A stretch of 64,000 nucleotides of DNA from an uncultured Solirubrobacteraceae bacterium (GCA_964588985.1 CAZPQW010000006.1:1-64000); one strand, 5' to 3'. Counted from the first letter of the stretch, positions 22,895 to 48,906 are shown. The notes: generated by a model not told the origin, from the sequence alone. Made by a program: numbers and translations.

Positions 22895-22924
22895 CTCGGC
22901 TCGCACGAGATCGCGCGTATTCGG

Positions 22925-23199
22925 CGAGCTGTTTCCGTCACATGCGTGTTTTTTACTGGGCGAACTTACCCAGAAATACGGGATTTTGACTGTCAGGACT
23001 TTTGTAGATCCTGGATGTAAATTGCTCACACCCTTGTGGAGGCAGACGTTCGGCTGTTAGAACTTTGCTCGTCCCGATGGATGGACAAATGGGATGTCAC
23101 AGCGAAGGGACGAACGTCGCTGGCGAGCCAACGGCGTTGGTTAGGACCACTGCTCCTGTCGTGCGGCTGGGGCGGTGATCACAGGAGCATGGCGATGCG
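22925..23199 (+). repeat. Diverged non-coding direct repeat, copy 2
   Basis: Same blocks as 14988-15260 at near-identical spacing (71/71 nt and 182/184 nt between anchors). Confidence 0.8.
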
Positions 23200-23300
23200 C
23201 GGCAGGCCTTCGACGGGTTAGATTCGCTATGTCTGAACGTCGGCGGTACACGCGCGTCGTCATGCTCCGTGAATCGGGCGCTACGCTAGCCTGAGGCGCA

Positions 23301-24380
23301 ATGCCGCCCGCACCCTTGACCCTCCGCCGCACCGCCCTGTTCGACCGCCACGTCGAGGCCGGCGCGAAGATGGTCGACTTCGCCGGCTGGGAGATGCCGG
23401 TCCAATACCAGGGCGTGCGCGAGGAGCACATGGCGGTGCGCGAAGCGTGCGGGATCTTCGACGTGTCGCACATGGGCGAGATCGAGACGAGCGGGCCGCA
23501 GGCGCTCGAGCTGCTGCAGCGGCTGCTCTCCAACGACGTCGCGCAGATCCCGATCGACGGGGCGCAGTACAGCGTGCTCTGCCGCGAGGACGGCGGCGTG
23601 CTCGACGACCTCTTCACCTACCGACTCGACGTCGACCGCTACCTGACGGTCACGAACGCCTCCAACCACGCCAAGGACCTCGCATGGTTCCAGGCTCACG
23701 CCGAGGGTCTGCCCGACGTGCGGGTCGAGGACCGCATCGACGACTGGGCGATGCTCGCCGTGCAGGGGCATCTCGCGCGCGAGATCGTGCAGGCGATCTC
23801 CGACCACCCGCTGCCCGAGCGCATGAGCGCCGAGACCCGCAACCTGCTCGGGAGCGACGTGCTCGTGTGCGGCACGGGCTACACCGGCGAGGACGGCGTC
23901 GAGCTGCTCTGCCCGACCGAGAACGCCGTCGAGCTGTGGGACGAGCTCGTCAAGCGCGGCGCCACGCCCGCCGGGCTCGGCGCGCGCGACACGCTGCGCC
24001 TTGAGGTCTGCTTCCACCTCTACGGCAACGACCTCAGCGAAGCCCGAGGCCCGATCGAAGCTGGGCTCGGCTGGTGCTGCAAGGAGGACACGCGCTTCAT
24101 CGGCTCCGAGGCCGTGCGCGCCGTCCGGGCGAGCGGGCCCGCGGAGAAGCTCGTCGCGTTCGCGCTGGACGGCCCCGGGATCGCCCGCCAGGGCAACCCG
24201 ATCGTTGGCGGGGGAGAGGTCACGAGCGGCACGCTCTCGCCGTGCCTCGGCGTGGGCATCGGCATGGCCTACGTGCCCGTCGCGAACGCCGCCGTGGGCA
24301 CCCGTCTCGAGATAGACGTTCGTGGCAAGATGCGCGGCGCCGTTGTCAAGGACAAGCCGCTCTACAGAAAGGGCTCCTGA
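23301..24380 (+). CDS. gcvT: Glycine cleavage aminomethyltransferase T
   Basis: FAGWEMPVQY, FDVSHMG, TGYTGEDGVE, GLGARDTLRLE. Confidence 0.96.
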   Translation: MPPAPLTLRRTALFDRHVEAGAKMVDFAGWEMPVQYQGVREEHMAVREACGIFDVSHMGEIETSGPQALELLQRLLSNDVAQIPIDGAQYSVLCREDGGVLDDLFTYRLDVDRYLTVTNASNHAKDLAWFQAHAEGLPDVRVEDRIDDWAMLAVQGHLAREIVQAISDHPLPERMSAETRNLLGSDVLVCGTGYTGEDGVELLCPTENAVELWDELVKRGATPAGLGARDTLRLEVCFHLYGNDLSEARGPIEAGLGWCCKEDTRFIGSEAVRAVRASGPAEKLVAFALDGPGIARQGNPIVGGGEVTSGTLSPCLGVGIGMAYVPVANAAVGTRLEIDVRGKMRGAVVKDKPLYRKGS

Positions 24381-29620: not shown

Positions 29621-30222
29621 GTGACCCGGTGGACGAGACACCCGCGGTCGCCCGCGCCGTCGAAGCCCTGCTGTTCCTCTCGGCCGACCCGCTGAGCGCG
29701 GCGGAGCTGGCGGACGCGACGCAGGTGGGGGAGGGTGCGATTCAGGCCGCGCTCGCGATGTTGGGGGAGCAGTATGCGCCGGGCGTGCGGGGGATCGTGC
29801 TGCGCGAGCTGGGGGGCGGTTGGACGTTCGCGAGCGACCCGTCGACGGAGGAGGCAGCGCGAAGGCTGTTCAGCCGCCCGCGTGTCTCGACGCTCACGCC
29901 GGCTCAGGCCGAGACGCTCGCGATCGTCGCCTACCTGCAGCCGATCTCGCGTCCGGAGATCACGCGGATTCGCGGGGTCAGTGCTGATTCTGCATCGGCG
30001 ACGCTGCTGGAGCGTGGGCTGGTCGAGGAGGCCGGCAACTCGCAGTTCGGCGCGATCCTCTACCGCACCACCACGCAGTTCCTCAAGCTGTTCGGGCTGC
30101 GCTCCCTGGAGGAGCTACCCGACATCGCCCGCTGGGATCCCACGCCGGAGGAACAGAGCGAGCTGCGCGAGCGGCTGCTACGGGCGGGCGAGGCCAGGGC
30201 CGGTGGAGGCCCGGAAGGCTGA
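29617..30222 (+). CDS. scpB: Segregation and condensation protein B
   Basis: EALLF, ETLAIVAYLQPISR..I..IRGV, FLKLFGL.SLEELP. Confidence 0.94.
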   Translation: MSDPVDETPAVARAVEALLFLSADPLSAAELADATQVGEGAIQAALAMLGEQYAPGVRGIVLRELGGGWTFASDPSTEEAARRLFSRPRVSTLTPAQAETLAIVAYLQPISRPEITRIRGVSADSASATLLERGLVEEAGNSQFGAILYRTTTQFLKLFGLRSLEELPDIARWDPTPEEQSELRERLLRAGEARAGGGPEG

Positions 30223-30391
30223 GTTCCCGTCCGTGGCTGAATTCGGGCCATCGGAAACAATTGGGGTGCATTCCTTGACTTCAGGGTTTTCTCCTGAGAT
30301 AGTGCACTTGCTCGCTCATCCGCACTTGGGATGAAATAGCGGCGGGCACTGGGTAAGAACGCGGCTCATTTTCTACAGTTCCGTTCCGAAA

Positions 30392-30961
30392 GTGCTAGGA
30401 GGCAATGTGGCAGGAGGACAGAGTCACTTACTTCGTCGTGCGCGCAAATACAGTGCGCTGGTTGGAGTGTTGATTGTGGCTGGGGTGGCTGGGTGTGGGG
30501 GCAATTCCTCTAACAGCACATCAGCCACTTCGGCAGCGGTTGCAACGACATCCAGTTCGACTGAAGCTACGCCGGCCCCGACTCATGCTTCGCTGTCTCC
30601 GATGGCCTCTGCCGCTGAGAAGATCTGTGGACGGCTCAATGCGAGGCTCGATGCGGAACCCAAAACGCTCAATGGGTTCGGAGCAGTGCCGGGTGCTCTC
30701 AGTCGCCGTGCTCGTGTCGAGAACGCTGCGCTGATCGAGCTCGCCACGCTTAAGCCGCCGGATGAAATCGCTAATGCCTGGGCGCAGATCCTCCGGTATC
30801 GACAGGCTCTCAAGCGAAATCTCTTGGATCTCGTCAAAAAAGCTCGCCGTAATGAGTTCAGCACGATGAACTCAGTGTATGCCGCAAATGTAAGCGTTGA
30901 ACGCAAATTGCTCGGGGTGAAGCTGGGAGCTAACTTTGAACCCTGCTTGCGGGTCGGCTGA
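30392..30961 (+). CDS. Predicted lipoprotein with S/T linker and helical domain (start may be GTG 30407)
   Basis: RRARK, hydrophobic stretch and VAGC lipobox; two Cys in the helical domain. Confidence 0.7.
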   Translation: MLGGNVAGGQSHLLRRARKYSALVGVLIVAGVAGCGGNSSNSTSATSAAVATTSSSTEATPAPTHASLSPMASAAEKICGRLNARLDAEPKTLNGFGAVPGALSRRARVENAALIELATLKPPDEIANAWAQILRYRQALKRNLLDLVKKARRNEFSTMNSVYAANVSVERKLLGVKLGANFEPCLRVG

Positions 30962-31092
30962 TGCTTTAGCGACGACGATGAGTGATCGCCAAGATGGCGT
31001 TTAGCTTGTGTCGTCGTCTTGATGTTGTCGTAGATTAAACGATCGACGATAAACTTTGTATAGCACCAATTCAAAAATATTACACAAAATCA

Positions 31093-31131
31093 CTTGACAT
31101 ACAGATATGGATATGTTGAACTTGACTTGCA
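31093..31131 (+). promoter_or_regulatory. Conserved upstream motif of A2
   Basis: CTTGAC-N12-ATATGTTGAACTT..TGCA, repeated at 40414-40453. Confidence 0.6.
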
Positions 31132-31261
31132 TTACCGGCTAGCCAGCATGGTCGAAAAAGATCGCCCTCTAGCTTGCCGGGTTCGACTCGGCGTTCTGGT
31201 ATCACTAGGTCGTTAGCAAGTGCTCTAGCGTCGAGTAAAACAGATCCAATAGGAGCAGACA

Positions 31262-31921
31262 ATGAAACGGATAAGAATCCTGGGGCTCACGGTGATCGCA
31301 GTATTTGCGACATCTGCCTTGGCGTCCTCGGTGGCTTCCGCCGCAGAATGGTTAGACAATGGAAAACCAATTACGAACCCAATATTAGTCTTATTGAAAG
31401 GAACCGGAGCGACTGGGCAGCTTGAACTCTCCGATTTAGCTGCTACCGGCGGCGCGACGGCCATCGTGTGTGAAAGCAAAGGCGACGGAACGATCGGGCC
31501 TGGAGCAAATGACACGATCAAAACAATAGCGGCACCAACCTGTAGCTTCGTAGCCGGGAAAAACGGATCTTGCGAAGCTAGCAAACCTGTTACTGCGACG
31601 CCGGTGAACCTGCCGTGGGCAACTCGACTCTTAACAGTTAATGGCGAGGTCCGGGACATGATCGAAAACTCGGGCCCCGGTGCTCCTGGCTGGCAAGTTG
31701 AATGCACAGTAGCGGGAATTTTCAAAGTGCAAGACAAATGTACTTCCGAAACAGGAGACCCGTTAATTGATAATAACCCTAGCGGCAACGATGTAATCGC
31801 ATTATTCGAAGCCTCCGAAACCGCTACCTGTAGTCTGGGCAATAGCACCTCAGGAATGGTAGTCGGTGCGGCCTTAGTCTTCTCTGACGTGCCCGGGTTA
31901 AAACTCTCGGTTGATCCGTAG
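31262..31921 (+). CDS. Small secreted beta-rich protein with 6 Cys (module subunit A2)
   Basis: AGGAG RBS; signal MKRIRILGLTVIAVFATSALASSVASA; close paralog of 40508..41149. Confidence 0.88.
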   Translation: MKRIRILGLTVIAVFATSALASSVASAAEWLDNGKPITNPILVLLKGTGATGQLELSDLAATGGATAIVCESKGDGTIGPGANDTIKTIAAPTCSFVAGKNGSCEASKPVTATPVNLPWATRLLTVNGEVRDMIENSGPGAPGWQVECTVAGIFKVQDKCTSETGDPLIDNNPSGNDVIALFEASETATCSLGNSTSGMVVGAALVFSDVPGLKLSVDP

Positions 31922-31951
31922 GCCAATAGACGTTTAGTTTGACGGCATGGT

Positions 31952-31979
31952 CGTGGGGCCGCTTGTTTGGGGCCCCACG
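31952..31979 (+). terminator. GC hairpin after A2
   Basis: CGTGGGGCC-N10-GGCCCCACG. Confidence 0.5.
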
Positions 31980-32210
31980 GCACGATGCACACTATCAGCA
32001 ATATCGAAAACTATGGCAATCGATATGCGCATATCCGGAAACGTGGCAATAAGGGTGTGATTGCACTCCTAAAAAAGAGTCGGAGACGCCTCTAGCATCT
32101 AGTTCTAGCGAAAGATATAAGTTATGAGATAGTGCCCTGCTAGCAGGCTGCCAGTAGGTGATGTTGTATCCACTGCCATGACTCGGGGAGATGATAAGTT
32201 GGAGGAGATT

Positions 32211-35200
32211 GTGCGATACGCAAAGCGTCCGACTCTGTGGTGTGTCGTGGCGTGTGTAGGTGCTTGTGTCGTGCTTGCGTTTGCGGCTGCTCCAGCATTT
32301 GCTGGCCGCAGCAAGCTCTCCCCGATTACCGAAGCCAACAGCAGGCCGTTCGGTGGACTGAGCTCGCTAGGGGTCGCAGGTGTCGCGGTCGATGACTCCG
32401 ATAATCTATGGATCGGGGAAACGGGAGGGCAGGTGATTGACGAGGTCAGTTCCTCCGGTGCCTTCGTTGGCGAAAGTACCGGCTCGTGGAGCGGCCTGTA
32501 CCCACAGACCGTTGCTTTCTCCGACGCCTCAAAACATCTTTATTTTACAGATTTCTTCAGCGGCGATATTTGGGGCTTGGAACCGAGCGGAGCTTATGCC
32601 GGCATCGATCTGACGGGTCCGTGGAGCGCGGGGTACCTCACTGTCGGGATCGCAGCTGATAACTCCAGCGGTCCGACCGGCGGAGATCTCTACCTCGCTG
32701 GCGAAGGCAGTTCGGTATATCGTATCGACGGTGCGGGTGGGGAAGTGCCCTTTTCCGCTAGCGAGCCATACATCGGCGGCAACCGGCTCACCGGCTTTGC
32801 GCCTGGCGAATCCTTCTACGCGCCGGTGGCTATCGCGGTCGCTTCTACCGGCGACTTCTATGTTGTTGATGCGGGTAGGGACGCAGTTTATGAGTTCAGT
32901 TCGTCCGGTGAATTCCTGCGGTCTTTCGCCGAAGCGGAAAATGGGCCCTTCGGCTCGGTCTCAGCTATCGCGGTCGACCCAACTAACGGTCATGTCCTCG
33001 TCGCAGACCAGGCTAACGGCTTTATAGACGAGTTTGACTCGACTGGAACCTATCTGGACAACCTCGAAGAAGTGAGCGGGCCCACGAGCCTTGCCGTTGA
33101 CTCCTCAGGCAAGCTATATGTCACAGAAAGCGCCGGAAATCAGATTGGAGTGTATGGGCCTTACAGTGCGCCGTTGCACCTACCCAAGATCGAAGGTCGC
33201 GCGGTCTCAAGCGTCGCCTCGACGTCCGCAACACTCAATGCAAGTGTCAAGCCAAAGGGTGGGGGTGAAGTCAGTGAATGTCGCTTTGAATACGGCAGTA
33301 GCGAAAGCTATGGCCAGAGTGTGCCGTGCGCTCCCGCCACATTTTCAAGCACGAGTGCCGTGTCAGCACAGTTGAGGGGGCTGCTGCCCGACAGGACGTA
33401 TCACTATCGTCTACGCGTCGTAGACACGTCGACCGGGTTTGCCGGATTGTCTGGGCTCGACCATGTCTTCGCAACAAACCCTGCCGCAGCTGGTTCGCCG
33501 ACTGCTGGTTGCTCCAATCCGGCCCGTACGGGTCCGTCTGTACGGCTTCCCGATTGCCGTGGCTATGAGCTTCTGACGCCGGCGGATAAGGGTGACGCTG
33601 AAGATATGTTCGGAGACACTGGCGAACAGTCGGTAAATGGTGGCAGTTATGAGGTTGGTTACCCGGATGAAAATCCGCTTGCGGAAGGTGGAAAGTTTTT
33701 TCTTAGCACGACTGCCGCTTTTGGTCCCGGCGCGACTGGCGGGCAGAATGGGTACGTGTTTTCACGTGATGCCGGTGGTTGGCAGCAGGATTCGCTTGCC
33801 GCTCCGATTCCGGGGGTTCAGAGCGTTGATGTTGAATCGCTCTTTAGTCCGAACTTTTCCCATGTCGCGAGCCTTCCGAAGCTCGGGTCGAATGCGAATG
33901 CGGGAGCAAAACAGTCTATGGGCCTTGTCGGCTTGCTCGGGGGCCCGTACGACACCATTTTTGAAGGCAACGAAGGGACTTTCACGGGTGCTTCGACAGA
34001 TTTCACGCGTGTCTTTTTCCAATCGGCAGATCATAGCTTCGCGGCTCCCGCGGGAGAACAGCTTGTGGGCAGTAAAGCTGTGTACGAATATTCTGGTGGG
34101 CGTTATACGCTTATCAACGTTGATGACGAAGGTAAGCTACTAAATGAATGTGGAGCTGTATCGCCAGCGGAAAACACGCAGATAGTCGGGGTCTACAGTC
34201 ATGCGGTGTCGGCGGACGGATCGCGCGTGTTCTTTTTGAGTCCCGACCCAACGGATCTTAGCTGCTTCCACGAAAGAGAAGAAGGGTTTACTGGTTCTCC
34301 TCCGCAGTTGTTTGTTCGTATGGGCCGGCGTACGGTTGAGATGTCGGCGCCAGTAGCAGGGGTGGTTGATCCAGCGGGACCGCAACCCGTGGCGTTTGCT
34401 GGTGCGGCTGCAGATGGTTCGCGTGTGTTCTTTATTACTCGCGAGGAGTTGACGGCCGACGATGCGGGTAATCATGCGCCTGAGTTGTATGAATACGATT
34501 TTGCAACGGAAGGATTGACGCGTATTTCACGCGGTGCTTCGAAGAGTGGCGTCGGTAATGTGAGTTGGGTTGTCCCAGCGGCGAGTGGGGCAGCGATCTA
34601 CTATACGACGGCTAATGGGCACCTGTATCGGTATGACACTCATACGGGGACTACGACGTACATCACGACGGTAAGCGGCGGCGACTGGAATGAAACGAAT
34701 GCGAGTGGCTATAAGACGCTAAATGTCCACCAGCCGTTGAATGTGCGTTCGTCGTGGGAGGCGACTCCGGATGGCCGGTTCTTGTTGTTTATTGCGAGGG
34801 AGAACGTGACGGGTTATGACTCCGCCGGACACAGTGAGGTTTATAGGTTTGACGCTGTGACGGGTGGCTTGTTGTGCATATCGTGTAATCCAGACGGGTC
34901 TGCGCCGTCTGCGGATGCGCAGTTTGATCGTACGACGCGCAATCGTGAGGTGCGGGGCATCTCGGACGACGGGGCTTTTGTATTTTTTGATACTCCTGAA
35001 TCCTTGGTGCCCGCTGATACGAATGGACGGTTGGATGTGTATGAGTGGCACGAAGGCGGCTTGTCGTTGATTAGTTCAGGTCAAGATGCAAGTAACTCAT
35101 ATTTCCTTGGTACTGATCCGTCGGGTGGTGATGTGTTTTTTGGTACTCATGCGCGCTTGGCTCCGCAGGATGTCGATGGCGCGGGAGATCTCTACGACGC

Positions 35201-35468
35201 GCGTATTAATGGTGGTTTTCCGGTGGTGCAGGGCGCGATGGGCTGTGAAGGCGATGGCTGCCGGAACCCTTCGCCAACGTCGTCTGGAGCGTCTGGTGAA
35301 GCAGGCCCGCTGTCGTTCTCGTTCACAGGCCCAGGGAATTGGGTTGCCCCAAAACCCCCTGCGGGGACTCAATGCAAAAAAGGCGTCAAGAAGCACGGTA
35401 AGTGCGTGAGAGTTCGGAAGAAGCGGGTGCGGGCTAGGAAAGCCGGCCACAACGGGAGGGCACGTTGA
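32211..35468 (+). CDS. Secreted NHL + FN3 + beta-propeller protein with Cys/Lys/Arg tail (B2; ORF open from 32178)
   Basis: GGAGG before GTG 32211; NHL repeats, GLLPDRTYHYR, LPDCRGYELLTP, VSADGSRVFF, tail CKKGVKKHGKCVR. Confidence 0.87.
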   Translation: MRYAKRPTLWCVVACVGACVVLAFAAAPAFAGRSKLSPITEANSRPFGGLSSLGVAGVAVDDSDNLWIGETGGQVIDEVSSSGAFVGESTGSWSGLYPQTVAFSDASKHLYFTDFFSGDIWGLEPSGAYAGIDLTGPWSAGYLTVGIAADNSSGPTGGDLYLAGEGSSVYRIDGAGGEVPFSASEPYIGGNRLTGFAPGESFYAPVAIAVASTGDFYVVDAGRDAVYEFSSSGEFLRSFAEAENGPFGSVSAIAVDPTNGHVLVADQANGFIDEFDSTGTYLDNLEEVSGPTSLAVDSSGKLYVTESAGNQIGVYGPYSAPLHLPKIEGRAVSSVASTSATLNASVKPKGGGEVSECRFEYGSSESYGQSVPCAPATFSSTSAVSAQLRGLLPDRTYHYRLRVVDTSTGFAGLSGLDHVFATNPAAAGSPTAGCSNPARTGPSVRLPDCRGYELLTPADKGDAEDMFGDTGEQSVNGGSYEVGYPDENPLAEGGKFFLSTTAAFGPGATGGQNGYVFSRDAGGWQQDSLAAPIPGVQSVDVESLFSPNFSHVASLPKLGSNANAGAKQSMGLVGLLGGPYDTIFEGNEGTFTGASTDFTRVFFQSADHSFAAPAGEQLVGSKAVYEYSGGRYTLINVDDEGKLLNECGAVSPAENTQIVGVYSHAVSADGSRVFFLSPDPTDLSCFHEREEGFTGSPPQLFVRMGRRTVEMSAPVAGVVDPAGPQPVAFAGAAADGSRVFFITREELTADDAGNHAPELYEYDFATEGLTRISRGASKSGVGNVSWVVPAASGAAIYYTTANGHLYRYDTHTGTTTYITTVSGGDWNETNASGYKTLNVHQPLNVRSSWEATPDGRFLLFIARENVTGYDSAGHSEVYRFDAVTGGLLCISCNPDGSAPSADAQFDRTTRNREVRGISDDGAFVFFDTPESLVPADTNGRLDVYEWHEGGLSLISSGQDASNSYFLGTDPSGGDVFFGTHARLAPQDVDGAGDLYDARINGGFPVVQGAMGCEGDGCRNPSPTSSGASGEAGPLSFSFTGPGNWVAPKPPAGTQCKKGVKKHGKCVRVRKKRVRARKAGHNGRAR

Positions 35469-38400
35469 TGAGGGTTCCTGCACGTTTGATGCTGGCTGTG
35501 GCCGTTGCGGTAGCTGGGTTTGGGGTGTTTTGTGTGCCAGGAGCACTTGCTGTGCAGGCTGGGGCGCAGTGGACAGTGACCGCAGTCTCCCTTCCGACGA
35601 ACTTCCCTCCGAATGCTTTGACGAGTGGCGCGAATGAGTATCGAGTGGTGGTCATCAATACGGGTGACACGCCAAGCAGCGGCACCGTGACGATCACGGA
35701 CGCGCTCCCGGCGGGTGTGTCTTTGGATCCGTTGGGTGCATCGGGAACGGAGCAGATCAGCGGTGCCCCGTTGAGCTGCTCGGGCCTTGAATGCACGTAC
35801 TCCGAACCTGTGCAGCCTGGTGATGCCTTGCAGGTCACGATCCCGGTTGATACGGGCGCGGCAGGTGTGGTTGAAAACCTAGTCACGGTGTCGGGTGGTG
35901 CGCCGGAAGTGTCTCAGACGACGCCGACTGTGATTGGGGTGCCAGCTCGATTTGGTGTTGCCCCTGGGTCGGCGCATACAACGCTTTCGAGCTTGCAGGC
36001 TGGTGCGCATGCGGATTTGACAAGCACGCTTGCGTTCAGCACGATCAACGACGAAGGGATCCTCGCTGGAGACCCTAAGGACACGACGTTCAACCTGCCC
36101 GCTGGGTTTGCCGGGGATGTGGTGGATGTGCCTGCGTGTGCAGTGTCGTATTTCGCGGCGCATAATGAATGCCCGATCGATACGCAGGTTGGTAGTGTGA
36201 CGCTATTTGTTGAAGCAGGGAACAACAGTGGTCGGATTAGTACCTCTCCGGTTTATAACCTTGCGGCGAGTCCGGGGGCGGTTGCAAAGCTAGGGTTCTT
36301 CGCGGGCCGGACCCTGGATATTCAGGGCAACGTGTTCGTGCGCCCTGGCGCGAACGGTCTTGAGCACCTGGAAACGACGTTCGAAAACATCGACGAGTCG
36401 CTCGCCGAGCTCGACAGCGTGGTTCTCACGATCTGGGGTGTCCCGAACGATCCGGCTCACAACGCTGTTCGAGGCTTGAACTGCCTAGCGGCGGGGAACT
36501 GCTTTCAGGTCAATGGTGGGATCCCGGACGGATTGTTGACTCCGTTTCTGACGAACCCCACGAGCTGCTCTGGGGCACCCCTGCATTCGGAATTCAAAGT
36601 CGACTCATGGCAGCATCCGAGCGAAGGCCCGCCTCCAACCCTGATGCAGTTCGGCACTCTCACGGGCTGCGAACAGCTAACGATGACGCCGAGCTTGATC
36701 GTCGAACCGTCCAACACATCCGCCTACTCCCCGACCGGGCTCAAGGTTGGCCTGGAAGTACCCCAGACCTTCGAAAACCCGTACGGCCTCGCGACCTCGC
36801 ACCTGAAGGACGCGGTCATCACGCTGCCCGAAGGGATGACTTTGAACCCATCGGCCGCTGCCGGCCTCGGCTCCTGTACCGAAGCGCAGGTCGAAGCAGA
36901 GACCGCCGCGTCGCTCCAGGACGAAGGCTGCCCGAACGCCTCGAAAATCGGCACCGTGCATGTCAAGAGCCCCGCGATCTCCGAGGAAGCGACCGGCTCC
37001 GTCTACGTAGCCACGCCATTCGCGAATCGCTTCGACTCGCTGCTCGCGCTGTACGTCGTGGCGAAGATCCCCGACCGCGGCATCGTCGTCCGCCTGGCGG
37101 GCAAGGTGGAACCGAACCCGCTGACAGGGCAGCTCACGACCACGTTCGACGAAAACCCACAGCTGCCGTTCAGCGACTTCACACTCAGTTTCAACCAGGG
37201 CGCCGGTGCGCCTCTGGTGACCCCCGCGACCTGCGGGGAATACACCACGAGCGGTGAAATGAGCCCGTGGTCGGAACCGAGCGCGTTCAGTCTGGTCTCC
37301 TCGGTCTTCTCGATCACGAGCGGCATCGGTGGGGCGCCCTGTCCGGCTGGTGCGGCGGCGTTTGCTCCGCAGCTCGTAGCAGGCACGCTCAACAACGTCG
37401 CCGGCTCCTACAGCCCGTTCGATCTCCACATCACGCGTGGCGATGGAGAACAGGAGATCACGGGCATCTCCGCGCAGCTGCCGCCGGGCCTGTCCGCGAA
37501 CCTGACGGGCGTCCCGTTCTGCCCCGAAGCGGACATTGCGCTTGCGCGGACCAAGACCGGTGCACAGGAGGAAGTCGAACCCTCGTGTCCGGCCGCGAGC
37601 CAGATCGGACACAGTCTCGCGGGCGCCGGCGTGGGATCGCAGCTGGTCTACGCGCCCGGCAAGCTCTACATGGCCGGGCCGTTCGAAGGCGCGCCGTTCT
37701 CGATCGTGTCGATCACCTCGGCGAAGGTCGGGCCGTATGACCTCGGCACGGTCGTCCTGCACCTGCCGCTGCAGATCAACCCCACGACAGCGATCGTGAC
37801 GGTCGGCGCCGGCAGCGCCGACCAGATACCGCACATAATCAAAGGAATCGTCATCCATCTGCGAGACATCCGCGTCTACGTGGATCGATCGAACTTCACG
37901 CTCAACCCAACCAGCTGCAACCCGATGAGCTTGACGGCCAGCGTCATCGGTTCGGGCCAGAGCTTCACCAGCTCAGCCGACGACGGAGCCGTGAGCGTGA
38001 GCAACCACTACCAGGCATCTGACTGCGCGAACCTGGCGTTCAAACCGAGCTTCAAGCTCTCCATCCCGGCAAGGGCCTCGAAAGTCGCCGGCATGGGGCT
38101 CACGACGAAGCTCACCTTCCCGGCCGGCACGCAGGGCACACAGGCGAACGTGAGGTACGTCAAAGTGGTCCTGCCGCGGGCGTTGCCTTCGCGCTTCTCT
38201 ACTTTGCAGAAAGCGTGCCTTGCCGGCGTCTTCGACGCCAATCCGGCAGCATGCCCGGCCGGCTCTGTCGTCGGCCACGCTCGTGCCGTCACGCCGATCC
38301 TGCCCGTTCCATTGACGGGACCGGCGTATTTCGTCTCACATGGTGGAGCGAAGTTCCCCGAACTCGTCCTCGTGCTCCAGGGCTACGGCGTCACGATCGA

Positions 38401-38764
38401 GCTGCACGGCGAAACAAACATAAAATCGGGGGTCACCAGCTCGACCTTCCGCACGGTGCCCGACCAGCCCGTCAGCAGCTTCGAACTGACGCTGCCGCAG
38501 GGCAAGGACTCAGCTCTGGCAGCCTTCCTGCCAGCCAAGGACAAAGGCGACTTCTGCGGCCAGAAGCTCACGGCCCCGACCAACATCATCGGGCAGAACG
38601 GCCTCGAAATCCGTCAGAGCACACCGATCACGGTCACCGGATGCTCCGGTAAGGCGCAGAAGCTCGCGGCGGCGCTCAAAGCGTGCCGGAAGAAGGCGCG
38701 GGCCAAGCGTGGGTCATGCGCCAGGGCAGCCCGCAGGAGGTATGGCTCCTCGAAGAAGGGTTAG
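35468..38764 (+). CDS. Large secreted protein: DUF11-like Ig domain and four-fold Cys-repeat domain (C2)
   Basis: TGATG overlap with B2; YRVVVINTG..VTITDALPAG; long colinear similarity to C1 (LPSR.STLQKAC, LTGPAY.VSH); tail KLAAALKACRKK. Confidence 0.88.
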   Translation: MRVPARLMLAVAVAVAGFGVFCVPGALAVQAGAQWTVTAVSLPTNFPPNALTSGANEYRVVVINTGDTPSSGTVTITDALPAGVSLDPLGASGTEQISGAPLSCSGLECTYSEPVQPGDALQVTIPVDTGAAGVVENLVTVSGGAPEVSQTTPTVIGVPARFGVAPGSAHTTLSSLQAGAHADLTSTLAFSTINDEGILAGDPKDTTFNLPAGFAGDVVDVPACAVSYFAAHNECPIDTQVGSVTLFVEAGNNSGRISTSPVYNLAASPGAVAKLGFFAGRTLDIQGNVFVRPGANGLEHLETTFENIDESLAELDSVVLTIWGVPNDPAHNAVRGLNCLAAGNCFQVNGGIPDGLLTPFLTNPTSCSGAPLHSEFKVDSWQHPSEGPPPTLMQFGTLTGCEQLTMTPSLIVEPSNTSAYSPTGLKVGLEVPQTFENPYGLATSHLKDAVITLPEGMTLNPSAAAGLGSCTEAQVEAETAASLQDEGCPNASKIGTVHVKSPAISEEATGSVYVATPFANRFDSLLALYVVAKIPDRGIVVRLAGKVEPNPLTGQLTTTFDENPQLPFSDFTLSFNQGAGAPLVTPATCGEYTTSGEMSPWSEPSAFSLVSSVFSITSGIGGAPCPAGAAAFAPQLVAGTLNNVAGSYSPFDLHITRGDGEQEITGISAQLPPGLSANLTGVPFCPEADIALARTKTGAQEEVEPSCPAASQIGHSLAGAGVGSQLVYAPGKLYMAGPFEGAPFSIVSITSAKVGPYDLGTVVLHLPLQINPTTAIVTVGAGSADQIPHIIKGIVIHLRDIRVYVDRSNFTLNPTSCNPMSLTASVIGSGQSFTSSADDGAVSVSNHYQASDCANLAFKPSFKLSIPARASKVAGMGLTTKLTFPAGTQGTQANVRYVKVVLPRALPSRFSTLQKACLAGVFDANPAACPAGSVVGHARAVTPILPVPLTGPAYFVSHGGAKFPELVLVLQGYGVTIELHGETNIKSGVTSSTFRTVPDQPVSSFELTLPQGKDSALAAFLPAKDKGDFCGQKLTAPTNIIGQNGLEIRQSTPITVTGCSGKAQKLAAALKACRKKARAKRGSCARAARRRYGSSKKG

Positions 38765-38768
38765 CAAG

Positions 38769-38783
38769 CTAGCCGCGTTGCAT
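38769..38783 (-). pseudogene. Four-codon stub (MQRG-stop) of a probable mazF/pemK toxin gene
   Basis: TGATG overlap with the upstream gene's MazE-like C-terminus; MazF-family proteins often start M(R/Q)RG. Confidence 0.45.
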
Positions 38784-39601
38784 CAGGGAGCGAGACCGTC
38801 GTCTGTCGCGGGCTCCCACGACGTGGCATCGCCGGAGGACTCCCAGGCATCCCAAGCATCCTCGTAGGCGCCGCCCAGCTCTGTTGCTCGCAGATCGCGG
38901 ATCAGCAGTCTGTACGCCAGCTCGGCACGACGCATCGCGTCGGCGTTCTGCACACTGGGGGTCGATAGGCGCAGACGCTGCTCGGCGACACGCAGCCACC
39001 TACGCTCGCTCTTGCGTAGGGAGGTCGCCATCTCGCGAGGATCCTCGATGAGCGACAGCAGCCGCAGGAGATCCTCGCGCTGCGATTCCGGGTCGCTGTG
39101 GACCATCAGGGATCTGGCCTTGATGAGCACCGCCCCGAGCAATGTCGGCCTGCGCAGCTCGAACGAAGATCCCTCGACAGTCACGGTGACCACCTCCGAT
39201 CGAGCGAGGGCCTGAGAGCCGCCTGGCGCGCTGATGGCTTTGAGTCCGGACCGGAGAATCGGCGGCGGCTGGATGCCATCCGGCGCCAGTACGTCGACGA
39301 TCAGCCCGTCGCGCTCGTAACGATGGGCATAGCCGTCCAGGTCTGGCGCCACGAGCTCGAAGCCCGCGTCGCGGAGCCCCGCGTCGATGGCGGCAAGTGC
39401 ACCCTGAGGGCGCGCTTGACCGAGCACGTCGATGTCGCCGGTAATCCGCACGTTGCCGACGCCGTGCTCGAGGGCATGCAACTGCACCATCAGGCCACCG
39501 ATGAGCACCCACTCGGCCGGGAGTCGTCTGGAGAGCTCGCCGACGGCTGCCCATAGCTCCAGGGCCGCTCGATCGTCGATGGCAATGTCGATCTCACTCA
39601 T
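38783..39601 (-). CDS. AbiEii/MenT-like nucleotidyltransferase with MazE-like C-terminal extension
   Basis: WVLIGGLMVQLHA..RITGDIDV pol-beta NTase motif; coupled to the upstream HTH gene. Confidence 0.7.
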   Translation of the reverse strand: MSEIDIAIDDRAALELWAAVGELSRRLPAEWVLIGGLMVQLHALEHGVGNVRITGDIDVLGQARPQGALAAIDAGLRDAGFELVAPDLDGYAHRYERDGLIVDVLAPDGIQPPPILRSGLKAISAPGGSQALARSEVVTVTVEGSSFELRRPTLLGAVLIKARSLMVHSDPESQREDLLRLLSLIEDPREMATSLRKSERRWLRVAEQRLRLSTPSVQNADAMRRAELAYRLLIRDLRATELGGAYEDAWDAWESSGDATSWEPATDDGLAP

Positions 39602-40284
39602 GGCTCAAGAGCGCGCGCGGCCTCACGGCGCGCGCGCGGCTCGTCGCTCTCGAGCAGGTCCACCAGGATCGCGGCGTGCGGCGCGCGGTGACTACCACGG
39701 CTATCCAATCGCAGCCAGATGTCGTCGGACACCCAGCGGATGCGAACCGGCCCCGTCCCCGGCAAGAGAGCGTGCTCGTCGACGATGAGGTTGCGATGGC
39801 TGGCCGGCGCATACACCTCCACTTCCGATGTCGGGCCGAGGACACCCACCACGTCGCCGGCTGAGATGCCGGTGGCCAGCACGTCTGGCCGGCCGAGGAT
39901 TCGTCTCAGCTCCGACGGATGGACATCGAATTCCTCCATCTCAGCGCGGGCTCGAAGTCGCGGCGCATAGTCCCGCAAGGGGTGCTCACGCAACCAGGCG
40001 CGCATACGTTGGGAGTAGCGCTCCCGGCCGGCCATCTCCTCGGCCGCGGTGTCCTCCCCGGATGCCAGCAGGAGGACAGCCCAAGCCATCGCCTGTGACA
40101 GGGGCCGTCCGCCACCGGGTCGCTGTCGGGCCAGTCGTTCCACGGCCCGCTCGTCCAGCCACCAGCTGCGCCCGCGCTTGACTGCGGGCAGGCGTCCCGA
40201 GGCGATGTGCTGGCGCACAGCGACCGGGCCGACTCCGAGCCGGTCGGCGGCCTCACGGACGCTGAGGAGCGAAGGATCAGGCAC
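39598..40284 (-). CDS. Excisionase-type HTH protein, AbiEi-like putative antitoxin
   Basis: LLSVREAADRLGV..VRQHIASGRLPAVKRGRSW; C-terminal ILVDLLE; leaderless GTG 6 nt after TAGGAT; ATGA overlap with the NTase. Confidence 0.72.
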   Translation of the reverse strand: MPDPSLLSVREAADRLGVGPVAVRQHIASGRLPAVKRGRSWWLDERAVERLARQRPGGGRPLSQAMAWAVLLLASGEDTAAEEMAGRERYSQRMRAWLREHPLRDYAPRLRARAEMEEFDVHPSELRRILGRPDVLATGISAGDVVGVLGPTSEVEVYAPASHRNLIVDEHALLPGTGPVRIRWVSDDIWLRLDSRGSHRAPHAAILVDLLESDEPRARREAARALEP

Positions 40285-40413
40285 GACAGAATCCTATCGC
40301 TAGCGCAGTGGTTCTGTCCACGTCATCGTTACGCTGCATACGCCGCGATCTGCTCACACGACATAGCGGGCTCCAATCGTCAGTCATGAGATGAGGAACA
40401 CTGCGACGAATTG

Positions 40414-40453
40414 CTTGACCGACAACGTTGAATATGTTGAACTTATGAGTGCA
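40414..40453 (+). promoter_or_regulatory. Conserved upstream motif of A3
   Basis: CTTGAC-N12-ATATGTTGAACTT, same spacing as at 31093. Confidence 0.6.
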
Positions 40454-40507
40454 ATGTTAATCAGTCGATCTATAGGCTGAGCAGGCAAACTCTATTAGGA
40501 GCAGAAA

Positions 40508-41149
40508 GTGAAACAGATAAGAAGTCTGGGGCTCATGGTTGTGGTGGTTTTCGCGATGCCCGCGGCAGCGTCTTCGACAGCTTCCGCTTTGGAATGGTTA
40601 GACAACGGGCATCCAATCACGAACCCGGTATTAGTCTTAGCGAAAACTATCGGGCAGCTCGAGCTAGCCGATTTAGCCGCTACGGGTGGTGCGGTGGTGC
40701 TCCTTTGCGAAGGTAGGGGTCATGGGACGGTGGGTCCGGGGGCCAACGACACGATCAAATCGATCGAGGTGACGAGTTGTAGTTTCGAAGCCGGGAAAAA
40801 CGGGTCTTGCGAAGCCAGTAAATCGGTTACCGGTAGCGCGCTGAATCTGCCGTGGGCCACGCGACTATTAACGGTCGGCGGCGTTACCCATGACATGATC
40901 GAAAACTCAGGTGTTGGAGTTCCCGGCTGGAGGTTCGAATGCGCCGTGGCTGGAATCTTCAAAGTTCAAGATGAATGCCATTCGGAAGCGAGAGATCCGC
41001 GGATAGATAATAACGCTTTCGACGTAACAGCCTTATTCGAAGCGTCCGAAACGGGAAGCTGTAGTCTCGGGACTAGCACCTCTGGCATGCTTGTGGGCTC
41101 GATCTTAATCTTCTCTAGCGGGCCGTTAAAAATCTCAGTCAGTCCCTAG
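40508..41149 (+). CDS. Small secreted 6-Cys protein, orphan paralog of A2 (A3)
   Basis: Shares EWLDNG.PITNP, DLAATGGA, AGKNGSCEASK, NLPWATRLLTV, VAGIFKVQD.C and ALFEASET with A2. Confidence 0.88.
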   Translation: MKQIRSLGLMVVVVFAMPAAASSTASALEWLDNGHPITNPVLVLAKTIGQLELADLAATGGAVVLLCEGRGHGTVGPGANDTIKSIEVTSCSFEAGKNGSCEASKSVTGSALNLPWATRLLTVGGVTHDMIENSGVGVPGWRFECAVAGIFKVQDECHSEARDPRIDNNAFDVTALFEASETGSCSLGTSTSGMLVGSILIFSSGPLKISVSP

Positions 41150-41162
41150 GCGGCTCGAATGC

Positions 41163-42230
41163 TTAGTTCGTAGTCACACTGCTGTGGGTCGCTATACCTA
41201 AGCGACCCACAGCACCACTCCCGAGTCCACCTGGGCCAGTCTGCGCCGCCAACTGCCCACAAGCCGCGGCAATATCCCTTCCCCGAGTCAACCGCACCGT
41301 CGCGGGTATGCCGTTCGCTTCGAGCGTCGTCCGGAACGCCGCGATCGACTCCCGGCTGGACCCCTCGAACTCCGAATCGGTGGGGTTATACGGGATCAGG
41401 TTGACCTTGAAGATCGACTGCTCCTCGTCCCGCCGTTTCAAAGCCCTCGTCAGCGCCACCGCCTGCTCGTAACGGTCGTTGACACCAGCGAGCATCACGT
41501 ACTCCACGAACACCCGCCTGCGCTTGCGCGCATAGAAAGCCCTACACGCCTCGATCACGTCCGCGAGCGGGTAGCGGTCGTTCACCGGCATCAGCTCCGA
41601 TCGCAGAGCTTCCTCGGCCGCGTGCAGCGACAGCGCCAGCCGTATCGGCATCTCGGACTCGGTCAGTCGTTCGATGCCGGGGATCCAGCCGACCGTGGAG
41701 ATCGTGGTGCGGCGGTGCGTGACGCCGATCTCAGGCAGCCGCTCGCATGCCTCCAGCACGTTGTCGAGGTTCAGCATCGGCTCGCCCATGCCCATGAACA
41801 CGCAGTGGTCGATCGCTTCGGTGCGGCGGAAGTGAAGCGCCTGCTCGAGGATCTCCGAGGCGGTGAGGTTGCGCGCGAACTTCATCTTGCCCGTCGCGCA
41901 GAACCTGCACGTCAGCGGACAGCCGGACTGCGAGGAGACGCAGATAGAGCGCCGCCCGTCGCGGAAGCGCATCAGCACCGCCTCCAGCGGCCGCCCGTCT
42001 GGCGTCGCGAACAGAGCCTTGACGGTGCCGTCGTCGGAGTGCGCTTCCTCGCGGAGCTGCAGCGCGCTGAACGGGAGCTCGCGCTGCAGCGTCTCGCGCA
42101 GTGCGGCAGGGATATTCGTCATCTCCTCATAGCCGTTCGCCCCGCGCGTCGCCCACGCCCAGATCTGGCGGGCGCGAAAGGCCGGCTCTCCGCGGTCGGC
42201 GAGGGTCTGGTCGAGCAGCTTCAGATCCAT
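41163..42230 (-). CDS. rlmN: 23S rRNA m2A2503 radical SAM methyltransferase
   Basis: CVSSQSGCPLTCRFCATG, FMGMGEP, SLHA, NLIPYNP, DIAAACGQL. Confidence 0.95.
   Translation of the reverse strand: MDLKLLDQTLADRGEPAFRARQIWAWATRGANGYEEMTNIPAALRETLQRELPFSALQLREEAHSDDGTVKALFATPDGRPLEAVLMRFRDGRRSICVSSQSGCPLTCRFCATGKMKFARNLTASEILEQALHFRRTEAIDHCVFMGMGEPMLNLDNVLEACERLPEIGVTHRRTTISTVGWIPGIERLTESEMPIRLALSLHAAEEALRSELMPVNDRYPLADVIEACRAFYARKRRRVFVEYVMLAGVNDRYEQAVALTRALKRRDEEQSIFKVNLIPYNPTDSEFEGSSRESIAAFRTTLEANGIPATVRLTRGRDIAAACGQLAAQTGPGGLGSGAVGRLGIATHSSVTTN
41180..41214. terminator. 14-bp perfect inverted repeat between converging transcripts, inside the rlmN 3' extension
   Basis: TGCTGTGGGTCGCT-ATACCTA-AGCGACCCACAGCA. 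Confidence 0.5.
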
Positions 42231-44775: not shown

Positions 44776-45810
44776 ATGATGATCGTCATGAAAGAGACCG
44801 CGACCGAGGAAGAGGTCGCCGCGGTCGTAGCCAAGATCGAGCGAGCCGGCGCGCGGGCGCACCGCAGCTCCGGCGCCCGCGTGACCGTGATCGGGGCGAT
44901 CGGCGACGTGGAGCAGGACGCGAACATCGAGAGCCTCGGCCTCGAGGGCCAGCCCGGCGTGGACAGGGTCGTGCCGATCCTCAAGCCCTACAAGCTCGCC
45001 TCCGCGCAGATCACCCACGGCGAGCGCACCGTGCTCGACATCGACGGACGCAAGGTGGGTGGAGAGAACTTCGCGCTGATCGCCGGGCCGTGCACGGTCG
45101 AGTCGCGCGATCAGATGCTCACCACCGCGCGGGTAGTGCGCGACGCCGGCGCGACGCTGCTTCGCGGCGGCGCCTACAAGCCGCGCACCTCTCCCTACGC
45201 CTTCCAGGGGCTCGGGCAGGAGGGGCTGCGGCTGCTCGCGGAGGCCAAGGCAGAGACAGGCCTGCCGATCGTCACGGAGCTGATGGACATCTCCGACCTC
45301 GACGCGGTGCTCGAGGTCGCCGACGTGATCCAGATCGGTGCGCGCAACATGCAGAACTACCCGCTGCTCGCCGAGATCGGCCGCTCCGGGCGCCCCGCGC
45401 TGCTCAAGCGCGGGCTGTCCGCCACACTCGACGAGCTGCTGATGGCCGCCGAGTACATCCTCAAGGAAGGCAACCCCAACGTGATGCTCTGCGAGCGGGG
45501 GATCCGCACGTTCGAGACCGCGTACCGCTTCACGCTCGACCTGATGGCGGTTCCCGTGTTGAAGGAGCTCACGCACCTGCCGATCATCGTCGACCCCAGC
45601 CACGCCGCCGGCCGGCGCGACCTCGTCGGCCCGCTGTCGCTCGCCGCTGCCGCCGTGGGCGCCGACGGGATAATCGTCGAGGTGCACCCCAACCCCGACG
45701 AGGCGATCTGCGACGGTCCCCAGGCGCTGAGGGCGGACGGCTTCGCGGAGTACGCGCAGACGGTCGAGCGCGCCGCCGCATTGGCTGGCAAGGCGCTCAG
45801 CGCCGTCTGA
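44776..45810 (+). CDS. aroF: DAHP synthase type I-beta with N-terminal regulatory domain
   Basis: [49 protein letters not shown]. Confidence 0.95.
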
Positions 45811-45835
45811 TGGGGCGCAGCACAGAAAGAGCTCG

Positions 45836-46927
45836 TTGAAGATCGCGGTCGTTGGCGTTGGCCTGATCGGAGGCTCGATCGGTCTCGCCGCGCGCGAGCG
45901 CGCTGGGGCCGAGGTGTGCGGGTTCGATCCCGACGAGCGGGTGCGTGCCCGTGCGCTGGAGCTCGGCGCGATCGACACGCAGGCCGCTGACATCGCCGGT
46001 GCGGTGGCAGGCGCGGACGTCGTGTTCGTGGCCGCGCCCGTCGGCGCGCTCGCCGAGACCGTGCGCCTCGCACTCGACGCCGCCGGCCCCGACTGCGTGG
46101 TCAGCGACGTGGGCTCCACCAAGCGCGTGCTCGCCGACGTGGGGGCGGACGAGCGCTTCATAGGCGGGCACCCGCTCGCCGGCGCCGAGACGGCCGGCGT
46201 GGAGCACGCGCGCGCCGACCTGTTCGACGGCGCCACCTGGTACCTCACGCCCGCCAAAGGCTCCACCGCGGGCGTCCTCTACGAGCGCCTGCATCGGCTG
46301 CTCGCCAGCTTCGGCGCGCACCCCACCGCGATCGACGCCGACACCCACGACCGGCTGATGGCGTGCGTGTCGCACCTGCCGCACGTGCTCGCCAACCTGC
46401 TGGTGACCCAGGCCGCGGGCGTGCTCGGCGGGGAGGAGTCCGAGCGCATGCCGGCCGTCGGGCCGAGCTTCCGCGACGCCACGCGCGTGGCCGGCGCCAA
46501 CAGCGCGATCTGGACCGACATCTACCTCTCCAACCGCGACGCGCTGATCGCGGCCATCGACGAGCTCACGGGGCGCCTCGGCGAGGTGCGCGGGCTGCTC
46601 TTGCAGGGCCAGGCCGCCGAGGTGACCTCGTGGAACGAGCGCGTGCGCGCCGAGCGCGACGCGCTGCTGCACACGGGCCTGCTCGACGGTGTGGACGACG
46701 GCGAGGCGCCGCGCGAGCTGCGCGCGTCGGTGCCCAACCGGCCGGGCGTGATCGCCGAGATCGCGCTCGCGCTCGGGCACGCGGGCGTGAACATCGCCGA
46801 CATGGCGCTCTCGCCCTCCGCCGACAACCGCCAGGGCGTCGTCGCGCTGTGGATCCGCGGCGAAGGGCAGGCGGCACGGGCCGGCGAGCTGATCTCCGGC
46901 CTCGGCTTCCCAGTCGTGCAAGCATGA
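45836..46927 (+). CDS. tyrA: Prephenate dehydrogenase with C-terminal ACT domain
   Basis: [39 protein letters not shown]. Confidence 0.92.
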
Positions 46928-46951
46928 GGGGTACGGCATGAGGGGCACGAG

Positions 46952-48265: not shown

Positions 48266-48906
48266 CGATCGACGGCCCCGCCGGCGCCGGCAAGTCCACC
48301 GTCGCGAGGGCGCTCGCTCGCGAGCTCGGGTTCACCTACCTCGACAGCGGGGCGATGTATCGGTGCGTGGCGTTGTTGGGACTGGATCAGGGGGGAGGAG
48401 CATTGCCTGAGCGGCCCGGAGCACTGGGGGAGCTGGCGCGGGCCGCGGCGATCGATTTCGTCCCTGGCGACAGCGATGACGCGCCGAGCCGCGTGCTGCT
48501 CGCCGGGCGCGACGTGAGCGATCAGATCCGCACGCCCGCGGTGTCCGAGGCGGCATCGGTGGTCGCCGCCGATCCGGACGTGCGCGCCGCGCTAGTCGCC
48601 AAGCAGCGCGAGCTGATCGGCGCGGGCGACTGGGTGGCCGAGGGTCGCGACATCGGCACGGTCGTCGCGCCCGACGCGGAGCTGAAGATCTTCCTCACCG
48701 CCGACTCGAGCGAGCGCGCACGGCGGCGGGCAGCCGAGCTTGGCGCCGACGTCGCCACCGTGCTCGCCGAGCAGACGATGCGCGACGAGCGCGACAGCAG
48801 CCGCGAGCACAGCCCGCTGCAATCTGCCCCCGATGCGGTCACGCTCGACACGACGGGGCTGGGGATCGATGAGGTGGTGGAGCGGATCGCCATACTGGCC
48901 AGATGA
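48256..48906 (+). CDS. cmk: Cytidylate kinase
   Basis: [28 protein letters not shown]. Confidence 0.95.

Follow-up and report, generated by a model that had tools for sequence, protein, structure and literature searches.

A linked propeller and rod gene pair with a re-allocatable NHL-FN3 head module in an uncultured Solirubrobacteraceae bacterium

Fibrillar adhesins and fibrillar adhesin-like proteins (Monzon et al. 2021, PMC8286594) combine a stalk of tandem domains with an adhesive head and an anchor. Here we analysed a 64,000-nucleotide (nt) stretch of DNA from an uncultured Solirubrobacteraceae bacterium (GCA_964588985.1 CAZPQW010000006.1:1-64000), called the window below, which carries two islands of a three-gene cassette, A-B-C. 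The B protein is built on a predicted large beta-propeller (the B core), the C protein on a predicted rod of four repeats (the C core), and a head module of NHL and FN3 domains is found on one or the other. With fibrillar adhesins the cassette shares secretion, Ig-like sandwich repeats arranged in tandem as a stalk (the C core), a distinct N-terminal NHL propeller on FN3 spacers, a possible C-terminal anchor feature, rapid diversification and many paralogs. However, it is split over two coupled genes, includes a second large propeller subunit (B), bears its head on either chain or on a third, and has a stalk of only four repeats; its stalk, B core and tail match no library family, and it has no known anchor. 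Head and stalk lie on one polypeptide in island 1 (C1) but on two in island 2 (head on B2, rod on C2). The Vibrio cholerae matrix adhesins Bap1 and RbmC (PMC10102183) are likewise secreted, modular proteins that combine a beta-propeller with other binding modules for surface attachment, but they are single polypeptides with a propeller of another family and no rod partner. A full-text literature search, which did not cover subscription journals, returned no published description of the B or C families.

The window has an overall G+C content (GC) of ~0.71, with two stretches of lower GC. Island 1 spans 15452-22894 and island 2 spans 31262-38764, with the following features.

15452-16018, + strand: A1, small secreted protein of island 1, from a family separate from A2
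16126-18327, + strand: B1, 733 residues, B core only plus a polybasic tail
18320-18327, + strand: B1/C1 junction ATGTATAG, in which the C1 start and the B1 stop overlap by 8 nt
18320-22894, + strand: C1, 1524 residues, with a signal peptide, an NHL domain and three FN3 domains, the C core and a short basic tail
~18410-20227 and 20261-22852, + strand: parts of C1, respectively the NHL plus three FN3 domains and the C core
31262-31921, + strand: A2, 219 residues, small, secreted and cysteine-containing, with a signal peptide recognised by eye
32178-35468, + strand: B2, 1096 residues, with a signal peptide, an NHL propeller, one FN3-like domain, the B-core propeller and a polybasic two-cysteine tail
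32313-33497, + strand: NHL-FN3 head block of B2, residues 46-440, as the envelope of a hidden Markov model (HMM) built on this genome
33504-35282, + strand: B core of B2, residues 443-1035, predicted large single beta-propeller
35466-35470, + strand: B2/C2 junction TGATG, a 1-nt stop/start overlap, with GGGAGGG 7-8 nt upstream
35468-38764, + strand: C2, 1098 residues from the ATG, with a signal peptide, a weakly DUF11-like N-terminal domain of ~170 residues, a four-repeat core and a polybasic two-cysteine tail
35978-38647, + strand: C core of C2, four homologous beta-sandwich repeats of ~220 residues with invariant cysteine pairs in each
38648-38761, + strand: C2 tail, containing KLAAALKACRKKARAKRGSCARAARRRYG; its last 35 residues have a net charge of +14

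Island 2 (A2-B2-C2) is a diverged paralog of island 1 (A1-B1-C1), as the first-pass annotation of this DNA had proposed, and its open reading frames (ORFs) are as described there. In BLASTP comparisons B1 and B2 are 33% identical over 533 columns (E 8e-43), with B2 residues ~440-1076 lying on B1 residues ~20-703, and C1 and C2 are 41% identical over 903 columns (E 0). HMMs made from ORFs of this genome gave an NHL domain, three FN3 domains and a core (residues 674-1532) for C1, a core only for B1, an NHL-FN3 block (46-440) and a B core (443-1035) for B2, and an N-terminus of ~170 residues followed by a core (172-1061) for C2. The NHL family PF01436 exceeded its gathering score of 20 bits on both B2 (44.2, E 1.4e-11) and C1 (29.4, E 7.2e-7), and three FN3-type Pfam families passed on C1 (fn3 PF00041, 31.6 against 25; PhoD_N, 36.5 against 30; Pur_ac_phosph_N, 35.5 against 30). 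The FN3-like scores of B2, 18.2 and 15.2, lie below the cut-off of 30; the domain aligns with the first FN3 domain of C1 (BLASTP E 4e-30). The layout first read from the window stands for the NHL domains of C1 and B2, the three FN3 domains of C1 and the core-only B1. For the DUF11-like N-terminus it gave to C2, the scores lie below cut-off (PF01345, 20.0 against 24.6; TIGR01451, 18.9 against 24), and PF01345 is present in the precomputed annotation of some close C2 homologs. By eye, the A, B and C products have Sec-type signal peptides.

The head modules of C1 and B2 are alike across the NHL/FN3 junction. C1 residues 238-452 and B2 residues 222-442, which cover the last NHL blades and the first FN3 domain, are 37% identical over 228 columns (BLASTP E 4e-30), and this alignment contains the FN3 starts GGGEVTECAFEWGETPSYG and GGGEVSECRFEYGSSESYG that had been noted as matching. 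The N-terminal halves of the two NHL regions align poorly (27% over 203 columns, E 1e-5). The coupling of B to C is kept in both islands, as had also been claimed: read directly, the B1 stop TAG (18325-18327) and the C1 ATG at 18320 give the 8-nt overlap, and the B2 stop TGA (35466-35468) and the C2 ATG at 35468 give TGATG. The C1 frame has its first ATG at 18254, with the junction ATG at 18320, and the C2 frame has a TTG at 35465 and the ATG at 35468; a purine-rich stretch lies a few bases 5' of each junction.

We then examined the pairing of B and C more widely. This genome has 12 full-length C-core genes, 10 of which have a B-core gene directly 5' on the same strand. Both lone C genes (contig C1:311812-314991 and contig C4:49031-51961) are without the usual tail, and the one B gene that lacks a C belongs to a near-identical A-B duplicate, truncated by genes like those of insertion sequences (IS). 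Outside this genome we used 102 foreign loci, from Solirubrobacterales or Actinomycetota metagenome-assembled genomes, found in two scans of species-representative genomes; they are the best 25 plus the best 77 matches (the second scan giving at least 610 stretches) and are not a random sample. These loci hold 125 C-core genes, and a B-core gene lies immediately upstream of 104. The 21 exceptions include 8 at a locus edge, 3 with <800 nt upstream, 2 that are the second C of a B-C-C arrangement and 2 at a gap or frameshift, and those that remain seem genuinely lone. The nearest candidate C start overlaps the B stop in 70 of the 104 pairs (by 4 nt in 42, 1 nt in 25, 8 nt in 2 and 14 nt in 1) and is ≤30 nt away in the other 34, the C start being taken as the nearest start codon in C's frame, a choice that favours small gaps. 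Exact overlaps of 4 or 1 nt, seen in 67 of the 104 pairs, are far above chance. Trees of B and C from 110 pairs mirror one another (Mantel r 0.70, against a maximum of 0.098 in 500 permutations), with the same nearest neighbour in both trees for 53 pairs. Among 151 genomes sampled from the class, only 3 had strong full-length C-core matches and only 2, both with multi-copy C, had a B core, the latter count being a floor because a stricter filter was used.

The survey of homologs for fusions that the first-pass annotation had suggested yielded four natural proteins in which B core, FN3 and C core are joined. One, P0191 (1744 residues), was among the best 150 B-core representatives, and three others (P0392, P0393 and P0397) came from the top 120 B homologs of more than 1283 residues. 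The latter three come from different sources and are 66-68% identical to one another over both halves, and thus represent a conserved lineage rather than an assembly error; they keep a basic stretch at the B/C junction as well as the basic C-terminal tail. These natural fusions are the strongest indirect evidence for B and C working as one assembly. Together, our results show that the B-C pair is passed on, copied and translated as one unit. The two cores had been called an obligate pair; a linked unit is what we find, but "obligate" is too strong a word, as lone C genes exist.

The position of the head is variable. In this genome it is on C in 3 modules (island 1, contig C3:52192 and contig C20:3497), where B is core-only, on B in 2 (island 2 and contig C19:55654) and on neither in 5. 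Within the foreign loci it is on none of the 125 C genes and on 62 of the 104 paired B genes, and the 42 head-less pairs are an upper bound because the N-termini of a few such B genes are long and diverge more. The 120 proteins most like the C1 head end in a C core in 29 cases, in a B core in 36 and in neither in 55. The top 150 B representatives comprise 118 that are core-only, 28 with N-terminal NHL/FN3 domains, 3 with short NHL/FN3 matches and 1 fusion, and the head is on 117 of the 120 long B homologs. A separate NHL/FN3 gene adjoins 5 of the 42 head-less pairs and 2 of the 62 B-headed pairs, overlapping the C stop in loci L017 and L082 and starting within a few nt of it in L063; in this genome, a protein of seven FN3 domains with the shared tail follows the contig C8 module. 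On the C tree, head state has changed at least 17 times, against a mean of 37.5 and a minimum of 30 when shuffled. The head has thus been joined many times to the N-terminus of B and at least once to that of C, and elsewhere it is a separate gene after C or is absent, two states that the first-pass annotation had not foreseen.

A tree of the NHL/FN3 junction segment, with 44 rows (37 B-borne, 3 C-borne and 4 stand-alone), bears on how this came about. The three C-borne heads form one clade (support 99), and B2 and its ortholog in L011 lie inside a B-borne clade (support 90). On these clades the heads of C1 and B2 are not each other's closest kin, and a recent direct swap between the two is rejected. 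Within this genome B2 scores best, orthologs aside, with the three C-borne heads (104-115 bits for the best domain; stand-alone NHL/FN3 proteins score 44-76), and its head is no nearer to these than to some B-borne heads elsewhere, such as that of L012 (121 bits). The two islands therefore draw on one common pool, from which heads have been re-allocated repeatedly, with no direct swap between them: the earlier idea of an exchangeable cargo that can ride on either partner holds family-wide, but not as an exchange between C1 and B2.

The C core consists of four homologous repeats of ~215-245 residues (hhalign 97.5-99% for R1-R2, R1-R3, R2-R3 and R2-R4), with invariant cysteine pairs in each, and in a structural model of the C2 core (predicted local distance difference test, pLDDT, 86.7) the repeats are predicted beta-sandwiches. 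A near-invariant Q-A-G-(A/G)-H opens the first repeat of every C core (35978-36010 and 20261-20300 in the window); thioester or isopeptide chemistry is a conceivable role for it. No Pfam or NCBIfam model matched the C core, a protein atlas search with it returned only unnamed Actinomycetota clusters, and neither the B nor the C cores matched PDB sequences in single-protein or profile searches. With Foldseek, the top matches of the whole C model were the Ig-like arrays of PrgB and antigen I/II (SpaP, SspB), at E 9e-13 to 4e-7. Those are cell-surface adhesin stalks, but TM scores are only 0.14-0.23, there is no sequence similarity, and architecture and anchoring differ. For single repeats, Z was 7-8.4 against ACE19, PitA, Cnm, RrgA, SpaD and BcpA and 9.2 against YcnI; in a comparison of repeats 2 and 4 with CnaA, CnaB and DEv-IgG folds, Z was 7-8.4 with root-mean-square deviations of 3.3-4.2 over 120-147 residues, Z under 8 being common. 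To that degree the repeats resemble in fold the CnaA/DEv-IgG-type domains of sortase-assembled pilins and MSCRAMMs (SpaA/SpaD, RrgA/RrgB, BcpA, ACE, Cnm, SdrD), whose hosts are also monoderm. Unlike those proteins, C has no sorting signal, no adjacent sortase and no sequence similarity to them, and it conserves cysteine pairs rather than the residues of isopeptide bonds (Lys/Asn/Glu).

For the B core, too, no Pfam or NCBIfam model was found, and none for B1 even at E 0.1. The B1-core model (pLDDT 93.3, predicted template modelling score 0.93) is one large beta-propeller at residues ~20-599, and its best fold matches are the propellers of DPP-IV and eIF3b (Z 13.8-12.6, 353-367 residues aligned). 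The DPP-IV propeller has eight blades and that of eIF3b nine, and B is, as modelled, a single large, 8- or 9-bladed, DPP-IV-like beta-propeller. DPP-IV, prolyl oligopeptidase, TolB and eIF3b likewise have one large propeller (Z 13.8-11.4), TolB chains giving weaker fold matches (Z 9.2-9.7). B differs from the DPP-IV, prolyl oligopeptidase and TolB group in having neither a peptidase domain nor the N-terminal domain of TolB, in being secreted by a monoderm bacterium and in being fused to a polybasic tail. The PD40 family PF07676 had no match on B1 or B2 at E 0.1, and is present in the precomputed annotation of some longer B homologs. Across the B family there is an invariant CxxC (C473/C476 of the B1 core) and an invariant C-x4-C just after the propeller (C611/C616), and an N-terminal CRAYELVSP motif holds an invariant R..E. 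Disulfides or, notably for the CxxC, metal binding would be candidate roles of these residues. Integrin alpha subunits offer an analogy only: the natural fusions read propeller, two FN3 domains, four sandwich domains, and integrin alpha chains are among the weak, generic fold matches of both B (Z 9.1 and 8.7) and C. We claim no homology to them, and the cassette is from a bacterial host and has no membrane anchor.

All 12 C and 11 B proteins of this genome end in a basic tail, with a net charge of +5 to +18 over the last 35-45 residues. The pattern KALKxC...C..ARxRYG is found at the end of 11 real ORFs in the whole genome, namely those of 7 B proteins, of C2 and one other C protein, and of 2 FN3-array proteins, and has 4 matches in 2.27 million residues outside tails. 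The two FN3-array proteins (contig C12:76114-78297, - strand, and contig C8:50866-53928, + strand) have 6-7 FN3 repeats. There is no LPXTG motif on A, B or C, and the C-termini of B and C are polybasic without a hydrophobic segment. These tails may hold B and C on the anionic envelope.

From these observations we propose that the cassette would be a two-chain, adhesin-like surface device. Outside the cell, B and C would bind to one another at a constant ratio, the basic tails would hold them on the anionic envelope, and the rod and FN3 spacers would project the head, the B propeller or both as ligand-binding surfaces; the head could be fused to either chain because the chains would work as one assembly. 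Expansion of the paralogs would then equip the bacterium with a range of specificities for living in soil and rhizosphere. We consider it about an even chance that B and C form such an envelope-held, adhesin-like complex with a re-allocatable head, and a physical association of B and C, taken alone, appears somewhat more probable than that. More tentatively, and with less than even probability, B-C may be an unrecognised two-chain surface receptor of monoderm soil actinobacteria, made of a propeller and a disulfide-stapled rod, held to the wall by polybasic two-cysteine hairpin tails, with a ligand-binding NHL/FN3 head freely re-allocated between the chains or to a third chain. It could then be a bacterial counterpart of heterodimeric receptors, with at least 10 specificities per genome, and might form a major part of the Solirubrobacterales surface.

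Several points weigh against an envelope-held complex of B and C. Linkage alone would produce the correlation of the B and C trees, and overlapping stop and start codons can arise from it as well. The lone C subfamily (2 of 12 here and ~10 non-edge foreign cases without B) indicates that C can function alone. Z scores of 7-9 per repeat are ordinary for the method, so the likeness to pilins and adhesins is one of fold only. Deep nodes of the head tree are open at 19 of 40 inner branches. Finally, Pfam and NCBIfam scans of B and C returned no anchor family (LPXTG, SLH, LysM or similar), and the sole sortase gene of the genome lies on another contig (C13:19329-19694), with none adjoining the cassette.

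The alternative that survives best, although we regard it as unlikely, is that B and C never touch and are separate proteins of the envelope, with no more in common than an operon, a regulator and the tail that anchors them, NHL-FN3 modules being promiscuous among the secreted proteins of these bacteria in general. This would fit the mirrored trees, which follow from linkage alone, the 55 of 120 best head matches that carry neither core, the several stand-alone NHL/FN3 proteins of this genome, the subfamily in which C is alone and the presence of the shared tail on FN3-array proteins as well. However, it leaves aside the conserved lineage of B-FN3-C fusions and the stop/start overlap in 70 of 104 pairs, and B without C is found only in one IS-truncated duplicate.

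We hold it improbable that the cassette builds a fibre or pilus, with A as the polymerising subunit, C as tip or stalk and B as an assembly factor or tip propeller. The C repeats do resemble Gram-positive pilin domains, the donor-strand-complemented Saf pilus is among the Foldseek matches of the C core, and A genes are many: A1-type ORFs number 16 (phmmer) to ~22 (iterated search) in this genome, and A genes adjoin the B-C pair at one end or at both, in some cases as tandem A2-A2 fusions. Among 25 C2-type loci, an A2-type gene lies upstream of B in 16 and an A2 copy downstream of C in 6. Yet 4 of the 10 pairs of this genome have no adjoining A1- or A2-type gene by these models, A, B and C have no LPXTG, the sole sortase gene is on another contig, and no usher, chaperone or secretion ATPase was found among the conserved neighbours of the loci. 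Pfam gave nothing meaningful on 21 A-family members, and A2 has no Pfam family. A1 and A2 have no BLASTP likeness, and their profile comparison reached 89% probability over only 40 C-terminal columns; we do not claim that they are homologous.

Slightly less probable again is an extracellular enzyme system, in which the NHL domain (lactonase- or lyase-like) or B (as a gate like that of S9 peptidases) would act on a polymer or signal and C would be the tether. The head has NHL, SGL and Vgb_lyase-type matches, relatives are named 'sugar lactone lactonase YvrE' or 'streptogramin lyase' in their sources, and the propellers most like that of B are those of DPP-IV and prolyl oligopeptidase. But the SGL, Phytase-like and Vgb_lyase scores are below cut-offs, B1 and B2 match no peptidase family in Pfam or NCBIfam, the B model is a propeller only without an alpha/beta-hydrolase catalytic domain, and ~40% of pairs (42/104) are head-less. 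That the likeness of C1 and B2 is merely the generic likeness of NHL/FN3 proteins, and the second module copy a coincidence, is disfavoured and very improbable: the open deep nodes of the head tree and the poorly aligning N-terminal NHL halves would allow it, but the match across the NHL/FN3 junction (E 4e-30 over 228 columns), the C-borne heads as nearest in-genome non-orthologs of B2 (104-115 against 44-76 bits) and the clear paralogy of the B and C cores stand against it.

The cassette has the marks of accessory DNA. Island 1 separates gcvT from ftsZ, with which a complete dcw cluster ends, and island 2 lies between scpB and rlmN; the junction spans in the window, 14946-23301 (ftsZ|gcvT) and 30222-41163 (scpB|rlmN), have variable content across the family. 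In the 11 family genomes with ftsZ and gcvT on one contig, the gap is 132-296 nt in 4, 1.1-3.3 kb in 5, 6.5 kb in 1 and 20.4 kb in 1, compared with 8.4 kb in this genome. Between scpB and rlmN, 10 family genomes have an overlap or 129 nt (3) or 0.7-4.2 kb (7), and here the distance is 10.9 kb; genome G152 was left out of both counts. Other sampled family genomes contained the C core in 0 of 12 and 3 of 14 cases, one with about 13 copies. G+C content at third codon positions (GC3) is 0.73-0.81 for B1, C1 and C2, whereas the housekeeping genes around them have 0.85-0.95; B2 and the A genes fell short of a 0.70 filter and do not enter these figures. The closed junctions of relatives, the patchy C core and the low GC3 together indicate that the cassette is accessory, patchy and prone to lineage-specific expansion; as far as searched, it is confined to Solirubrobacterales. 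Its GC3 is 0.1-0.2 below that of housekeeping genes although the paralogs are old (35-48% identity).

Further features adjoin island 2.

30392-30961, + strand: small gene for a lipoprotein-like product, on the left border of low-GC island 2, with ...VAGC at the N-terminus, a lipobox by eye
38783-40284, - strand: two overlapping genes between C2 and A2', for an unknown 272-residue protein and an HTH_17 protein, GC 0.66-0.70
40508-41149, + strand: A2', a second A2-type gene 3' of C2 (phmmer E 6.6e-91 to A2)

At ~30300, the left edge of island 2, GC drops from 0.71 to 0.57. The lipoprotein-like gene has no Pfam family, and its sole foreign homolog (E 1.8e-25) adjoins L011, the closest island-2 ortholog. 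For the gene pair at 38783-40284, which encodes an HTH_17/excisionase-type protein and has a weak AbiEi_4 hint, neither the 102 related loci nor the rest of the genome gave a homolog; the pair is probably a later insertion between C2 and A2' and might be the remnant of a mobile or toxin-antitoxin-like element. The window has no tRNA genes that would mark the island borders. Among the sequencing runs listed, those with island 2 are rhizosphere DNA runs, and none is an RNA run.

The sole widespread conserved neighbour of the loci is a TetR-like regulator family, present in 62 of 102. These regulators often have two tandem domain copies per protein and frequently lie just 5' of B; the family has ~9 strong paralogs in this genome (e.g., contig C23:48527-49918, - strand, and contig C10:81105-82088), none adjoining the islands of the window. 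On contig C8 (34015-58875), the near-identical A-B duplicate (34015-37483) lies apart from an A-B-C module with the seven-FN3 gene and a further A (45066-54735), with IS-like genes at ~38.7-43.4 kb between them, and it looks like a recent IS-associated segmental duplication. Elsewhere in the window, 53626-56001 (+ strand) encodes a 791-residue protein with subtilase-type S8 and PKD domains, whose GC3 of 0.77 is atypically low for its housekeeping surroundings. A second, longer FtsZ-like gene (contig C7:6175-7245, - strand) is 56% identical to the FtsZ of the dcw cluster, and sampled family genomes have a similar copy.

Solirubrobacterales are abundant in soil and rhizosphere and molecularly almost unstudied. 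With ~7.5 kb per copy, the cassette is present in at least 10 copies in this 3.4-Mb genome, and its two core families are large, with over 7,100 clusters for C and, at E ≤1e-30, 1,925 representatives for B, none with a Pfam, NCBIfam or PDB sequence relative. If propeller and rod are one functional unit, two big families of 'hypothetical proteins' would become a testable system, as would the placement of a head on either chain, on a third chain or within an all-in-one fusion, and the natural fusions and head variants are ready-made constructs for structural work. The basic tails, if they are true envelope anchors, would represent a new display route for monoderm bacteria.

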